A DNA stretch of 30,077 nt from Candidatus Peregrinibacteria bacterium (lineage in GTDB: Bacteria > Patescibacteriota > Gracilibacteria > UM-FILTER-43-11), in the NCBI GenBank assembly GCA_016927155.1, contig JAFGNE010000047.1, positions 1 to 30,077 on the forward strand, given 5' to 3'. The position numbers were made by a program, and so were the translations under genes. The notes below the pieces were generated by a model, which saw only the letters and a program-made list of their open reading frames with translations, was not told the origin of the DNA and did not search any database. Shown piece by piece: positions 10,298 to 27,046 of the stretch; the first letter of the stretch is position 1; each line of letters starts with the position of its first letter.

Positions 10298-11578
10298 ATG
10301 CCTTTCATCGCCGACCTTCACATCCATTCAAAATATTCCCGCGCGTGCAGCAAAAACCTTGACCTGCCGCACATTTGGGCGTGGTGCCAGCTTAAGGGGA
10401 TTGATTTGGTGTCCACTGCGGACTTCACTTATCCGGCCTGGTTTAAAGAAATCCATGAAAAACTCGAGGAAACCGCGCCGGGGATTTACGGGCTAAAAAA
10501 AGAATTCCAAAAAGAGGCGGCGGATGTGTATATCCCCGAAAAATGCCAACGCCCCGCCCATTTTATTTTGAGCACGGAAATCAGCCTGATTTACAAGAAG
10601 GGCGAAAAGACCCGAAAAGTGCACCATGTCATCCTCGCGCCGGACGTGAAAACCGTCGCCAAAATCAATGTCGAGCTCGATAAGCGCGGTAATATCAAGT
10701 CGGACGGGCGGCCTATCCTGGGGCTGGACAGCAAAGAGCTTTTGAAGCTACTCCTCGACATTGACCCGGACATTGAGCTGATTCCCGCCCACGCGTGGAC
10801 GCCGCATTTCGCGATTTTCGGCTCCGTTTCCGGCTTCGACAGTATGGAGGAATGTTTTGAGGAGCTTTCCGACCATATCCACGCGCTGGAAACCGGGCTC
10901 TCTTCCGACCCCCTGATGAACTGGAGGCTCAGCCAAAATGACAAGTACGTTTTGGTGAGCAATTCAGACGCCCATTCCCTCCCAAAAATGGGACGGGAGG
11001 CCACGGTGTTTGATTGTGAAATGACCTATCCGGCCATCCTGCGCGCTTTGCGCCATGACCATAAACAAATTGCCGGGACGATCGAATTTTATCCTGAAGA
11101 AGGCAAATACCACGCGGACGGGTTAAGGGCGGAAGGGCTTTGCCTGGCGCCTGAAGAAACGAAAAAAATGAAAAATATTTCGCCAAAAACAGGGAAAAAA
11201 ATCACGGTCGGCGTGCTTCACCGCGTTTCCGACCTGGCAGACAGGAAAATGGGCGAAAAGCCGAAAACCGCGCGGCCCTTTTGGCACATCATCCCGCTCA
11301 CGGAAATCCTGGCTGAAATCCTGCAGGTCGGCGGCGTGAGCAAAAAAGTGGATGAACTGTATTCCAAATTGCTTCAGGAGGTCGGCCCGGAATTTTATAT
11401 CCTCAAGGACGCGCCGATCGCGGACATCAGCCGTGTCAACGAAATGGTCGGTGAGGCCATCTGCCGCATGCGCGCCAGCCAAGTGATCATCCAGCCGGGA
11501 TATGACGGGGAATATGGTATAATCCGCCTCTTCAAGCCCGAAGAATTAGTTGGAAAAGACCAAATGAAATTGTTCTGA
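10298..11578 (+). CDS. Endonuclease Q family (PHP-domain) protein
   Basis: ADLHIHSKYS, TADFT, STEIS, PAHAWTP, ETGLSSD, SNSDAHS, FYPEEGKYH and PGYDGEYG motifs. Start moved to ATG 10298 (MPFIAD), which avoids overlap with the divergent DUF1003 gene. Confidence 0.88.
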   Translation: MPFIADLHIHSKYSRACSKNLDLPHIWAWCQLKGIDLVSTADFTYPAWFKEIHEKLEETAPGIYGLKKEFQKEAADVYIPEKCQRPAHFILSTEISLIYKKGEKTRKVHHVILAPDVKTVAKINVELDKRGNIKSDGRPILGLDSKELLKLLLDIDPDIELIPAHAWTPHFAIFGSVSGFDSMEECFEELSDHIHALETGLSSDPLMNWRLSQNDKYVLVSNSDAHSLPKMGREATVFDCEMTYPAILRALRHDHKQIAGTIEFYPEEGKYHADGLRAEGLCLAPEETKKMKNISPKTGKKITVGVLHRVSDLADRKMGEKPKTARPFWHIIPLTEILAEILQVGGVSKKVDELYSKLLQEVGPEFYILKDAPIADISRVNEMVGEAICRMRASQVIIQPGYDGEYGIIRLFKPEELVGKDQMKLF

Positions 11579-13215
11579 TGCTCAATCCATCCCAACAACA
11601 GGCCATTGAAACGGCGGGGGGGCCGCTCCGGATCGTCGCGGGGGCCGGCACCGGCAAAACGCGCACGCTTACGGAACGGATCGCTTATTTGATCGAAACA
11701 GAAAATATCCTGCCGCATCGCATCCTCGCCCTCACCTTTACCAACAAGGCCGCGCATGAGATGGTAGAACGGTTGCGCCAAAAGCGCGAGATCCTGAAAC
11801 AAGTTCAGGATGACAATGCGCTTTTGGCGCCACAGGTCATGACTTTCCATTCGCTCGCCGCCCGCCTTTTGCGGCAGTATTGGGACCCGAATTTCATCAT
11901 CCTCACGGAAAAAGACGGGGGACCTCCCGAAGACGTGAACGCGCTTGACTTTGACGGCCTGCTCACCAAGCTGATTGAGGTATGGGATGAAAAGCCGGAG
12001 GTACTTATGGACTGCCAACAAAAATTCGACCATATTTTAGTGGACGAATACCAGGACGTGAACGCGGCGCAAATCGAAATCGTGCGGCGGCTGGCTGAGC
12101 CTCATCGCAACCTCTGCGTGGTGGGAGACCCTGACCAGACGATTTATTCATGGCGCGGGGCCAAAGCGACCTCAATGACGGAGTTCGCGGAGTTATACCC
12201 GGAAACAAAAACCGTTATCCTGACACAAAATTACCGCAACCCGCCCGCGATCCTGAAAGGCGCGGAAGAGCTTATCCGCCATAATCCGGACCGGATTGAA
12301 AAGCGGCTGGAAGCGGCCAAAACCACGGGACAGCCGATCGCGCTTTGGGAAAACGGGAACGAATGGGAAGGTTACGACACAATTTCCCACATCCTTGAAA
12401 TGCACCTCGGCTCGCACGGCGATATGGTGCTGGCGGACAGTTTGGATGTTGGGCGGCATGGGGGCTTCCGGCCGTTCTCGGACATCGCCATCCTTTACCG
12501 CACGCAGGCCGAAGGCAAAAAAATCGCGGCCCGCCTCGCGGAACGCGGGTACCCCTGCCAAATGTCCGCATCAGAGTCATTTTGGGAAAGGAAGGAGGTG
12601 AAGGAATTTTTGGGTGAATTGGAAAAATTCCGTAGCGGCATATGTCATCCTGAACTCGTTTCAGGATCTGCCGCTGCGCCCCTTTTTTCCTCCTGGTTAC
12701 GCGACCGCATCACTTCTTTCGCCGCGTCCAAGCAATTAAAGGCCGCTCCGGCAAACCACCTGAACCTACTGATCGCGTACGCCATTCCTTTTGACCGGTT
12801 GCCGGTTCAAGAAGCGCTCGCCATTTTCCTCGACGAAACCAAGCTACAGCAGGAGGCGGACAACTTGATTATGGCGGACCGCATCAACCTGCTGACCCTG
12901 CACGCGGCCAAAGGGCTGGAATTTCCGGTTGTCGTCATCATCGGGCTGGAAGAGGAACATATCCCCCATTTAAAACCCACGGACGACCCAGATAATCTGG
13001 CCGAAGAACGCCGGCTTCTTTACGTGGGCATGACGCGCGCCACGGAAGAACTGCATCTTCTGGGTGCTAAAAAAACCGGCAATAAAGAACTCAAGCCGTC
13101 GCGGTTCCTGGCAGAAATCGGTCACGCCAATATGGCAACCGGCCAATTGCCGGAAAAAGCGGCAATCCGACTCAAACGTAAGGCCATCAAGCAGGCGCAG
13201 ATGAAAATGTTTTAA
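11578..13215 (+). CDS. UvrD/Rep/PcrA-like superfamily 1 helicase, compact form
   Basis: AGAGTGKT, LTFTNKAA, TFHS, DEYQD, GDPDQTIYSWRGA, QNYR, TLHAAKGLEF and EERRLLYVGMTRA motifs. TGATG overlap with the upstream EndoQ gene. Confidence 0.92.
   Translation: MLNPSQQQAIETAGGPLRIVAGAGTGKTRTLTERIAYLIETENILPHRILALTFTNKAAHEMVERLRQKREILKQVQDDNALLAPQVMTFHSLAARLLRQYWDPNFIILTEKDGGPPEDVNALDFDGLLTKLIEVWDEKPEVLMDCQQKFDHILVDEYQDVNAAQIEIVRRLAEPHRNLCVVGDPDQTIYSWRGAKATSMTEFAELYPETKTVILTQNYRNPPAILKGAEELIRHNPDRIEKRLEAAKTTGQPIALWENGNEWEGYDTISHILEMHLGSHGDMVLADSLDVGRHGGFRPFSDIAILYRTQAEGKKIAARLAERGYPCQMSASESFWERKEVKEFLGELEKFRSGICHPELVSGSAAAPLFSSWLRDRITSFAASKQLKAAPANHLNLLIAYAIPFDRLPVQEALAIFLDETKLQQEADNLIMADRINLLTLHAAKGLEFPVVVIIGLEEEHIPHLKPTDDPDNLAEERRLLYVGMTRATEELHLLGAKKTGNKELKPSRFLAEIGHANMATGQLPEKAAIRLKRKAIKQAQMKMF
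11775..11830 (+). repeat. Palindromic (REP/RPE-like) element, copy 1, in frame inside the helicase
   Basis: GCGCCAAAAGCGC-GAG-ATCCTGAA-ACAAG-TTCAGGAT-GACAAT-GCGCTTTTGGCGC: perfect 13-bp outer stem and 8-bp inner stem. Confidence 0.85.
12631..12678 (-). repeat. Palindromic (REP/RPE-like) element, copy 2, inverted relative to copy 1, in frame inside the helicase
   Basis: Plus strand CGTAGCGGCA-TATGTC-ATCCTGAA-CTCGT-TTCAGGAT-C-TGCCGCTGCG. Its 27-bp core (12643-12669), reverse-complemented, matches copy 1 (11789-11815) at 26/27. Confidence 0.85.
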
Positions 13216-19740: not shown

Positions 19741-21531
19741 ATGACGTGGAAGGAGGTCATTGACCGCCTCGGCAACCCAAGCGAACAAACGGAAATAAAA
19801 GAATTCAAAGTCGAATTTCCAAAGGAACTCGAAACGCTGGAACGTTCGCGTTTTTTTGAAAAAGTCCGTGAATTCGCCAATGGCTGCATCCGGATTCCCG
19901 AATTCCAGAAGGCCGCGGGCATTGGGGAAAATTTCGGCGAAAGTTTTTTGGAAATGGTCACCAGCAATGATTTTTCCGAAGCGGACAAAAACGACCCTAT
20001 TTATGCCAAACTGCTCGATCTGGCCCGGATCAAGAATGAGATGGTCCGTGATATCGCGCTTGATTACCTGAAACACCGCGGAGACGGATTGGGGCTAAAA
20101 CCGCATGAAACCGTAATTTTGGAATACCTCCTCCAGCTTATTCCCGTAATGGATCGCATGTACATGCGCTGGAGGAAAGAACTTTACCCCGCGGCCCTGG
20201 CCAAAAAACTGACGGACCTCCTGGATTCGGAAACGGAATCGGCTTTTGACCACTTACAGGCACAGGGGCTTTCTGACCCTTACGCCATCGTGCAGGAAGC
20301 GGAAGGCAAACCGATCGCGGTCCCTTATGGCGTCGCTTTCGCCGAGGAAACAGCCGAAGCCGACACCTTATTGGCCGGTCTGGTGATGGCGCTTAACGGA
20401 TTAAAAGAAAAAACAGAAAATCAGGCCGACATCGCAGAAATTGAAACGTATATTTTTTATTTCGCTGCCTTACAAACGGCCTTTAAATGCGAAGAATCCA
20501 AAAAGGAAGGGGACGATTGGCTATCGGTTAAGTTATGGAAAGAGGTGGACAAGGCCTGGCTTAAAACCCAGGGCCGACTCCAGTTGGTCCATTCCATTGA
20601 GGCCGGTTACGGCGGCATCGACCCAACGGAAACCAAAGTGATCCCCGAATTCAAAATCCTGCTTGTGGACGAATCCGCCGGCGGCGAAGCGCTGGAAATT
20701 CTAAAAAAAATGAGGGAAGAAAACATGGAGGTTTTGGCGCCGCTCCTTCCGGAACAGGTAAAAGGCAGGCTGGAAGTGATCCGCCTTTCGCTGGTCGGGC
20801 CTTTTTCCATCGTACTGGCCGGAGGCAATTCACTGGATAATCTTGGCATCGCCCAAATGGGCCCCAATTACGGCGACATCGCTTCTATGGGGGTGAAGTC
20901 GTTTCTTGACGCCGCCTCTTTCGCGGAAACAGACGCTTCGCGCGCGGCTTCAATAGAAGGTGTGCTGGGGATAGAGGCCGCTCAAACCTATTTCCCTTAC
21001 GAAACAAAACACGAAGACTTGCTTTTGGCCGAACTCATCGCCTCGCATGAGATTTCTCATGCCGTGCTTGGAGACCTGGGCACGCTGGATGAAGTGCACG
21101 CCACCTGGATGGGGCTTGTGGCTCTTTTTGAAAGGGAAAAAACGGGCAAGGTGGAGGCGGCAACCGTAAATGTGATCCTGAAAGAACACATCAAATACAG
21201 CATCAAATACCTTTCCGACGCCAGCCATGACGACCGGTATTACATCGAAGGGGCGATCAACACGAAGCTGATGCTCCAAAGCGGGCTTCTGGCGCGGGCT
21301 GACGGTAAATTTTCCCTGGATGAAAAAAATTGGGGACCATTCAAAAAACTTATCGGGGAACATTGGGCGGAAATGGTCCGCCTGCACGCGGCCGGCGGCA
21401 GGGGATTAAAAACTTTCGCGAAAAACCTCCAAAAAGCGGATGACGCCATAAAAGAAGTTGCCCGCCTGGCCGTTGAAGGCGTGCAGGCTTACAACGAAAA
21501 CACCAAAAAGGAGATTCTCGGATCAAAATAA
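19741..21531 (+). CDS. Zincin-like (HExxH) protein resembling CiaB / peptidase M49-like families
   Basis: SHEISH...LDEVHAT zinc-ligand arrangement. WKEVDKAW...LQLVHSIE and AQMGPN...GVKSF blocks recall Campylobacter CiaB (from memory, not searched). Confidence 0.6.
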   Translation: MTWKEVIDRLGNPSEQTEIKEFKVEFPKELETLERSRFFEKVREFANGCIRIPEFQKAAGIGENFGESFLEMVTSNDFSEADKNDPIYAKLLDLARIKNEMVRDIALDYLKHRGDGLGLKPHETVILEYLLQLIPVMDRMYMRWRKELYPAALAKKLTDLLDSETESAFDHLQAQGLSDPYAIVQEAEGKPIAVPYGVAFAEETAEADTLLAGLVMALNGLKEKTENQADIAEIETYIFYFAALQTAFKCEESKKEGDDWLSVKLWKEVDKAWLKTQGRLQLVHSIEAGYGGIDPTETKVIPEFKILLVDESAGGEALEILKKMREENMEVLAPLLPEQVKGRLEVIRLSLVGPFSIVLAGGNSLDNLGIAQMGPNYGDIASMGVKSFLDAASFAETDASRAASIEGVLGIEAAQTYFPYETKHEDLLLAELIASHEISHAVLGDLGTLDEVHATWMGLVALFEREKTGKVEAATVNVILKEHIKYSIKYLSDASHDDRYYIEGAINTKLMLQSGLLARADGKFSLDEKNWGPFKKLIGEHWAEMVRLHAAGGRGLKTFAKNLQKADDAIKEVARLAVEGVQAYNENTKKEILGSK

Positions 21532-26492: not shown

Positions 26493-27046
26493 AAAAATGG
26501 GGTTACTTTATGGGAATCTTCCAAATTTTGCAGAATAAGACGGTACAGGTTTTTTGTCACAGGGTCCTTCAGGCCGGGTTCAAGTTCCACCAACGGCACC
26601 AGTACAAATTGCCTGTTATTCATGTGGCGGTGGGGCACCTGGAGCTCCGGCAAATCGACCACTTCATCGCCATAAAGCAGGATGTCGATGTCGATCCGGC
26701 GGGGTTTCAGCTCTTTTTTATGAGTACGACCCATCGCTTTTTCCACCACTTCACAGGTTTCCAGAAATTCCAAAGGGTTCAAATCCGTTTCGATTTTAAG
26801 CACACGGTTCAGGAACCAGGAATGGCCTTTTTCCGCCGCCGGCTGACCTTCCTGACGGCCGTCGGGCCCGCCCGAACGATCCGAAAATCGTTCGGACCGG
26901 ACGGGGAACCAGGGTTCGGTTTCATAAACCCTGGATGACTGGATAATTTTGATTTTGCCGGTTTCCCCCAGCTTTTTTTCAGCTTCCATAAGGTGTTCAA
27001 GCCTGTCGCCGACGTTGGAACCCAGTGATAAATAAGCCGTGATCAT
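26489..27046 (-). CDS. folK: 6-hydroxymethyl-7,8-dihydropterin pyrophosphokinase with a ~20-aa loop insertion
   Basis: AYLSLGSNVGDR, SRVYETEP, FLNRV, E..MGR, PRRIDIDILLY and PH..M.NRQFVLVPL motifs. Start placed at ATG 27046 (ATGA overlap with the PTPS gene). Confidence 0.93.
   Translation of the reverse strand: MITAYLSLGSNVGDRLEHLMEAEKKLGETGKIKIIQSSRVYETEPWFPVRSERFSDRSGGPDGRQEGQPAAEKGHSWFLNRVLKIETDLNPLEFLETCEVVEKAMGRTHKKELKPRRIDIDILLYGDEVVDLPELQVPHRHMNNRQFVLVPLVELEPGLKDPVTKNLYRLILQNLEDSHKVTPFL
26847..26906. repeat. 60-bp double palindromic insert inside folK
   Basis: CCTT-CCTGACGGCCGTCGGG (26851-26866, perfect core GACGGCCGTC) abuts CCGAACGAT-CCGAAA-ATCGTTCGG (26872-26895). Confidence 0.75.

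Follow-up and report, generated by a model that had tools for sequence, protein, structure and literature searches.

The 30,077-nt stretch analysed here (the window; contig JAFGNE010000047.1 of assembly GCA_016927155.1, Candidatus Peregrinibacteria bacterium, forward strand) contains a gene for a 545-aa UvrD/PcrA-like superfamily 1 (SF1) helicase, which carries two in-frame copies of a short tagged palindrome. Judged by their sequence features, both copies belong to the CGTC-tagged repetitive extragenic palindromes (REPs). The assembly, called G000 below, comprises 915 kb in 99 contigs and is 90% complete. The open reading frame (ORF) matched PF00580 (1e-64), PF13361 (5e-40) and also PF13245, which identifies it as a UvrD/PcrA-type helicase. 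For comparison, six orthologues from genomes of its family (31 genomes in the set) and a further 51 from a search of 5.8 billion proteins were aligned. Orthologues from relatives and metagenomes were 41–61% identical to the query (45–61% for the aligned sequences), and none closer than 57% local identity (61% in the alignment) was present among the 5.8 billion proteins. An AlphaFold2 (AF2) model built on the orthologue alignment reached an overall pLDDT (predicted local distance difference test) of 89.7. The coordinates of all features are compiled in Table 1.

Table 1. Helicase gene, repeat copies and outer arms in the window (positions are those of the whole stretch).
Feature	Position	Strand	Basis or remark
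Host gene, 545-aa UvrD/PcrA-like SF1 helicase with both repeat copies	11578..13215	+	ORF, Pfam, orthologues, AF2 model
REP copy 1, CGTC-2 type, 28 nt	11788..11815	+ (tagged 5'-TGTC strand is minus)	sequence, repeat search
Copy 1 tail GAG	11788-11790	+	sequence
Copy 1 inner stem, first half ATCCTGAA	11791-11798	+	8 bp
Copy 1 loop ACAAG, 5 nt	11799-11803	+	sequence
Copy 1 inner stem, second half TTCAGGAT	11804-11811	+	8 bp
Copy 1 tag GACA	11812-11815	+	sequence
Copy 1 left outer arm GCGCCAAAAGCGC	11775..11787	+	encodes L-R-Q-K-R, similar to native orthologue residues
Copy 1 right outer arm, exact reverse complement of left arm	11818..11830	+	starts 2 nt past tag; encodes A-L-L-A-P
REP copy 2, inverted	12643..12670	-	same gene; encodes CHPELVSGS (residues 356-364)
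Copy 2 tag TGTC (plus-strand reading)	12643-12646	-	sequence
Copy 2 stem halves	12647-12654 and 12660-12667	-	sequence
Copy 2 loop CTCGT	12655-12659	-	sequence
Copy 2 tail CTG	12668-12670	-	sequence
Copy 2 left outer arm GTAGCGGCA	12632..12640	+	pairing, folding
Copy 2 right outer arm TGCCGCTGC	12669..12677	+	9 pairs, one T-G

A first-pass annotation of the window had described a nested hairpin at 11775-11830 with a perfect 13-bp outer stem, an 8-bp inner stem and a GACA tag, and this structure was verified. The two outer arms are complementary at 13 of 13 positions and enclose a 28-nt unit, whose tagged strand reads TGTC-ATCCTGAA-CTTGT-TTCAGGAT-CTC. Folding of the 76-nt copy 1 stretch gave −38.4 kcal/mol, compared with −17.5 ± 2.8 for 200 shuffled versions, none of which was as good (z = −7.45). 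In the frame of the helicase the palindrome is translated as LRQKREILKQVQDDNALLAP. Copy 1 adds 11 residues, EILKQVQDDNA (residues 71–81), of which E71 to D79 are encoded by the 28-nt unit itself. Opposite these residues 51/51 orthologues show an 11-residue gap, and the segment from motif Ia to TFH is otherwise constant in length; the six orthologues from the family lack the insert as well, and the earlier estimate of a loop about 10 residues longer than usual in PcrA/UvrD holds. Residues 71–80 were modelled as coil with a mean pLDDT of about 56. The right arm encodes ALLAP at a position where orthologues conserve [LF]-P-x-V.

The 25-nt core was found a second time in the window, on the minus strand at 12643-12667, where 0 matches are expected by chance. 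The encoded peptide CHPELVSGS sits in a length-variable loop of the orthologue alignment and adds about 7 residues relative to most orthologues; the surrounding region (residues 351–370) had pLDDT values of 66–71. The outer stem of copy 2 is unrelated to that of copy 1 and is accompanied on its outside by an extra 7-bp complementarity (GGAAAAA/TTTTTCC). The empty or variable orthologous sites and the low pLDDT values place both inserts in exposed, poorly constrained loops. Since both units are read in stop-free frames, the inserts are predicted to be translated as 11 and about 7–9 extra residues. No empty-site allele of the helicase was seen in one DNA run (contigs only, with the organism at about 4x) and two RNA runs. 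Apparent 'joints' between the helicase copies in these DNA and RNA runs were rejected, as they derive from contigs of other organisms with the same repeat. A separate peculiarity of the helicase lies at residues ~105–120 (window 11890-11935), where about 58 residues fewer than in all close orthologues lie between TFHS and the DEYQD motif. The shortened segment corresponds to the 1B-domain region; the gap is spanned by ILTEKDGGPPEDVNALDF, with a pLDDT of about 70.

A search of G000 for the core with at most 4 mismatches yielded 8 copies, 5 of them intragenic and all of these in open frames. Besides the two in the helicase gene, the intragenic copies are located in a YjeF_N/NnrE gene (two copies) and in a PD-(D/E)XK nuclease gene (one copy). 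Three frames of the unit are free of stops, and all three are used among the five intragenic copies. Differences in the inner stem between copies are compensated, e.g. from AT...AT to AC...GT and to GT...AC. One copy lies just downstream of tuf, and contig C58 (L026:1290-1380) has a degenerate copy with tandem half-units. Neither of the two findings that could have refuted the first-pass annotation, an equally long loop in the orthologues or a core that occurs nowhere else in the genome, was made, and its proposal of a miniature non-autonomous element adding peptide to a protein of the Candidate Phyla Radiation (CPR) is supported by the genomic copies and the empty orthologous sites.

Several further observations concern these copies. 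Both NnrE copies (C52:20366-20393 and 20531-20558; L023:998-1025, 1163-1190) have the same orientation within one gene and translate as EVLKQVQDDN in variable loops; the NnrE orthologue of G022 (L217, ~1900-1960) has a decayed copy at a different site, read as FFDCAQNDN. The copy at C70:3096-3123 (L024) lies at a contig end inside a PD-(D/E)XK nuclease domain (PF12705, 2e-41) and is read in the third open frame as YVTLNSFQG, so that another gene of the DNA-repair type carries the repeat. Tandem arrays of half-units of about 20 nt, consisting of the 3' half-stem, the tag and an 8-nt spacer (e.g. TTCAGGATGACG-GTTGGTGG), were noticed beside some full units (L052:1-150, L043:1440-1590, L044:1340-1570 and C58 of G000); in G001 they reach contig ends, one of them just upstream of dnaK. 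A different tagged hairpin resembling NTS/dRS3 (TGTC-ATTCCCGCG-AAA-GCGGGAAT-CCAG type) is present in two copies in G000 (C8 ~2811 minus and C25 ~3936 minus). Thus, the genome has at least two types of CGTC REP. The idea that the copies on C36 and C37 mark a longer autonomous element was dropped, as only 39 nt are shared, and for a GC-rich double palindrome in folK (26847-26906), which does not belong to this repeat family, no second copy was found in the genome with up to 4 mismatches allowed.

Among the 31 genomes of the family, the 28-nt unit (pattern search with at most 3 mismatches) was present in 11, in up to 30 copies each; the reversed pattern, used as a control, gave 0. The maximum of 30 was reached in G011, which has many (-)/(+) doublets about 155 bp apart, forming palindromic elements of about 185 bp with the core as terminal inverted repeats; the ends of these elements are far better conserved than their interior. 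The exact 25-mer was searched in a collection with one genome per species and in viral contigs. It occurred in at least 119 stretches across many phyla, with Sphingomonas, many Bacteroidota, Treponema, Campylobacterota, Gracilibacteria and Saccharibacteria among the hosts, and in 36 viral contigs. Some viral contigs (IMG/VR contigs L247, L249 and L258) contain 3–7 exact copies; the repeat may travel with phages or be spread by them, or their hosts may simply be rich in it. Many other contigs of the source sediment metagenome also contain the core, including a 128-nt metatranscriptome contig, so such repeats are transcribed somewhere in the source community. The element is a member of a described cross-phylum family and is not particular to G000 or to CPR bacteria.

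CGTC-tagged REPs were described by Di Nocera, De Gregorio and Rocco (2013, BMC Genomics 14:522; PMC3733652). According to that work they have the tag CGTC, often TGTC, stems of 8–9 bp beginning with AT, loops of 4–5 nt and short tails, mostly CCA, and occur mostly as head-to-head dimers; the Rickettsia palindromic elements (RPE) RPE-4 and RPE-6 were equated with this class. Intragenic copies were often found in UvrD/Rep, UvrABC, RecBCD and polymerase genes, some REPs were inserted within palindromes, many were argued to be transcribed, and no dedicated transposase was found for the class (PMC3733652). The repeat in the helicase gene shows each of the defining features. Its tag is TGTC in both window copies; the remaining copies and those of relatives have either CGTC or TGTC. 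The stem has 8 bp, of which the first pairs are A-T and T-A, around a 5-nt loop (ATCCTGAA/5 nt/TTCAGGAT), as in the CGTC-2 type, and a 3-nt tail follows, CTC or CTG in G000 and CCA in G011, G019 and G006. It is multicopy, with the 8 copies of G000 and the 30 of G011 including doublets, and the intragenic CGTC-2 peptide RHSELVSGS of Sulfurovum (PMC3733652 supplement) matches CHPELVSGS of the helicase. The occurrence in a UvrD-like helicase agrees with the published pattern (PMC3733652).

A first, unbiased clustering of the ORFs within 600 nt of cores (119 loci) yielded no recurrent enzyme, nor did any transposase family recur beside cores. A small GIY-YIG family emerged once more loci and larger distances from the cores were included in the clustering. 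Of the 30 small GIY-YIG genes in the family genomes (93–105 aa, PF01541), eight have inverted tagged hairpins within 200 nt on each side, the tags pointing outward; the background density is 0.11 tagged hairpins per kb. The genes differ in the type of their hairpins, which is ATCCTGAA at G022:C103 and G001:C21. The first-pass annotation had suggested a search for repeat-flanked GIY-YIG genes; these were found in relatives, and none was found in G000. The arrangement matches that published for the Ssn family of GIY-YIG nucleases, which act on single-stranded DNA and whose hairpin repeats are known as NTS/SRM (Chenal et al. 2025, Nat Commun 16:2388; PMC11893778). SsnA binds the NTS hairpin solely as single-stranded DNA and on one strand only and does not bind RNA; its cut falls in the variable flank, a few nucleotides upstream of the tag (PMC11893778). 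The assays were carried out with Neisseria and Wolbachia enzymes, and the role of Ssn in Neisseria is a modulation of transformation (PMC11893778).

For a characterization of the outer stems, pairing between the flanks of each copy was compared with the 1% level of shuffled left/right pairs. Strong pairing above this control level was detected for 12 of 62 distinct copies from this CPR family and for 5 of 190 from other phyla. In relatives, most stem-bearing copies resemble intrinsic terminators, with an A run, a GC stem, the REP in the loop, the second stem half and a T run; inside coding DNA, this terminator-like nested architecture is seen in both helicase copies and in one of the NnrE copies. 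In the eleven best-formed outer stems the tag-side arm begins 1–4 nt after the tag, which is the zone of reported SsnA cutting (PMC11893778). One terminator of G024 carries a REP in its loop, and its counterpart in G017 is a plain hairpin whose loop measures 6 nt; the occupied stem of G024 is perfect and the longer of the two, the empty one of G017 imperfect. At another terminator, orthologous between G001 and G017, both genomes have a REP; there the stems differ at 4 positions, all compensated, the REP halves are identical (100%) and the flanks 76% identical. At helicase site 1 the codons for ALLAP are exactly complementary to those for LRQKR upstream. The outer arm may be an inverted copy of the target DNA, as proposed earlier; at one intergenic site of a relative the hairpin preceded the insertion. 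From the plain G017 hairpin on the one hand and the symmetrised arms of G024, G001/G017 and helicase site 1 on the other, we infer a contribution of two processes, insertion into single-stranded hairpin loops and the copying of one flank by template switching or fold-back.

Very probably, selfish CGTC-2 REP copies of the Ssn-bound class have settled in frame in two loops of the helicase and are tolerated there, and the outer stems reflect the mode of settling. The repeat would be a short non-coding selfish palindrome of a class that is bound by small GIY-YIG Ssn nucleases in the form of single-stranded hairpins. Its copies would have entered two surface loops of the helicase in stop-free frames, and the extra peptide would be tolerated rather than functional. 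An Ssn-type nuclease with single-stranded DNA as its substrate presumably brought about the spreading or assisted in it; this nuclease now appears to be missing from G000, leaving orphan copies behind. At least sometimes the repeats may insert where a hairpin already exists, in its single-stranded loop. Within genes, the arm on the tag side seems to have been overwritten with the reverse complement of the opposite flank, possibly via template switching or fold-back synthesis at a cut or a hairpin.

Some points weigh against this interpretation. Neither a small GIY-YIG (ssn) gene nor a Y1 transposase gene was found in G000, at its 90% completeness; the G000 copies would then be orphans, and they look orphaned. 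Although NTS-ssnA-NTS looks like an insertion sequence, the published evidence concerns cleavage, not transposition (PMC11893778). The GIY-YIG genes of the relatives were matched by Pfam PF01541 alone and were likened to Ssn by the arrangement of gene and hairpins. A regular expression built from the published SRM pattern matches neither window copy; it matches two NTS-like copies elsewhere in G000. The net insert sizes of 33 nt (site 1) and about 21 nt (site 2) follow no single simple rule. Finally, with the nearest orthologue only 57–61% identical, the empty helicase site at the nucleotide level and the origin of the arms are beyond reconstruction.

Two further readings concern the outer stems. 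The arms might be the footprint of Ssn-type propagation, in which a cut in single-stranded DNA a few bases past the tag, or stalling at the hairpin, causes the growing strand to turn back on the repeat and use the flank on the other side as its template, so that each insertion builds a longer hairpin of its own; we regard this as doubtful. If it were true, terminator-like structures would be created or perfected between genes and a few codons overwritten inside genes, and small selfish repeats would be a source of terminators and new peptide in a reduced CPR genome. Alternatively, the stems might predate the repeat, with the element targeting the apex of hairpins or palindromes and the coding sites happening to be palindromic. 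The plain hairpin of G017 where G024 has a REP in the loop, the A and T runs that make most stem-bearing copies of relatives terminator-like, and the REPs reported inside palindromes (PMC3733652) all speak for it. However, chance alone would by our own estimate give a 0.9-Mb genome only about 0.1 perfect palindromes with 13-bp arms, the tag-side arm in the helicase replaces the [LF]P.V conserved in 51 orthologues with codons exactly complementary to those upstream, and it is the filled stem of G024 that is longer and perfect. We think this reading rather unlikely.

Two other explanations were weighed. The nested hairpin might be a selected, functional RNA element of the mRNA, such as a processing site, a stabiliser or a pause site, with the core as a protein-binding RNA motif. 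The identity of the core stem halves amid diverged flanks at the site shared by G001 and G017, the compensated stem differences, the metatranscriptome contigs of the source community and the argued transcription of many REPs (PMC3733652) would be in line with such a role. But the two helicase copies are inverted relative to each other, and one mRNA thus contains both strands of the unit; RNA is not bound by SsnA (PMC11893778), orthologues work without the insert, and copies occur in unrelated genes and intergenic sites. An Rfam 15 scan of 11500-12900 with E up to 10 gave no match either, the best hits having E > 1, far below gathering scores, and we consider an RNA function highly improbable. 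Least of all do the data suggest a classical REP or MITE (miniature inverted-repeat transposable element) that owes its movement to a tyrosine transposase of the RAYT/IS200 type or to a DDE transposase with the terminal TG...CA as its recognition site. The 185-bp doublets of G011 with their terminal inverted repeats and the presence of Y1_Tnp genes in 20 of the 31 family genomes would fit a transposase, yet the presence of Y1_Tnp is unrelated to that of the repeat (8 of the 11 repeat-bearing genomes, 12 of the 20 others). There is no GTAG tag and no PF01797 in G000, and 7 RAYT-like genes of repeat-bearing relatives, the other kind of partner envisaged for the repeat, had no tagged hairpins nearby. 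The single units lack a pair of terminal inverted repeats, and no direct target-site duplication is visible at singles or at the G011 doublets. A fixed duplication of about 5 nt would fit the +33 nt of site 1 and of the G024 site but is at odds with site 2 (+21 nt), and direct repeats were not seen. No transposase family recurs beside cores, and we consider this explanation very unlikely.

The helicase hairpins are mostly a fresh example of a repeat class that is already described, as is its partner nuclease; the example extends CGTC/Ssn-type repeats to candidate-phyla bacteria with very small genomes. Modestly new are the stem variant outside the published search pattern, the intragenic share of 5/8 in a reduced genome and the nested, copy-specific stems. 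More than half of the G000 copies are intragenic and add predicted peptide to conserved enzymes, including DNA-repair proteins, as the 2013 paper saw elsewhere. Because the published SRM pattern misses an abundant, AT-richer variant, current counts of Ssn-related repeats are underestimates. That outer stems start so close to the tag, near the reported SsnA cut, offers a cheap, testable clue to the mechanism of insertion. For genome annotation, such inserts account for odd loop lengths and spurious small ORFs (e.g. the ILKQVQDD and HPELVSGS peptides).

Compared with the CGTC-2 REPs of the 2013 study (PMC3733652), the repeat shares the CGTC/TGTC tag, the 8-bp stem starting with AT, the 5-nt loop, the 3-nt tail and in-frame intragenic copies in UvrD/Rep genes. 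It differs in its host, a candidate-phyla (Peregrinibacteria-like) genome outside the 2013 sampling, in its CTC/CTG tails, and in the copy-specific outer stems or terminator hairpins around many copies of this family, which are not described for CGTC-2 in PMC3733652. The REP/REPIN-RAYT system (Bertels and Rainey 2011, PMC3116915) has in common with it the short tagged hairpin, doublets forming long hairpins and a bracketed small nuclease gene, whereas here the tag is CGTC/TGTC instead of GTAG, the nuclease has a GIY-YIG and not an HUH-Y1 fold, and an association with RAYT is lacking. The likeness to Rickettsia palindromic elements drawn in the first-pass annotation was apt, as RPE-4 and RPE-6 belong to the same CGTC REP super-family (PMC3733652). 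In both cases palindromic repeats are translated as extra peptide in surface loops of conserved proteins; RPE-1 type elements measure 100–150 bp, in contrast to 28 nt plus copy-specific arms here, and the kinship is with RPE-4/6 via the class as defined in PMC3733652. With the Ssn system (PMC11893778) the relatives of G000 share small single-domain GIY-YIG genes between inverted hairpin copies with outward tags, and the repeat shares the layout of tag, hairpin and then C after the palindrome, while its stem is AT-richer and escapes the published SRM pattern, and no ssn gene was found in G000.

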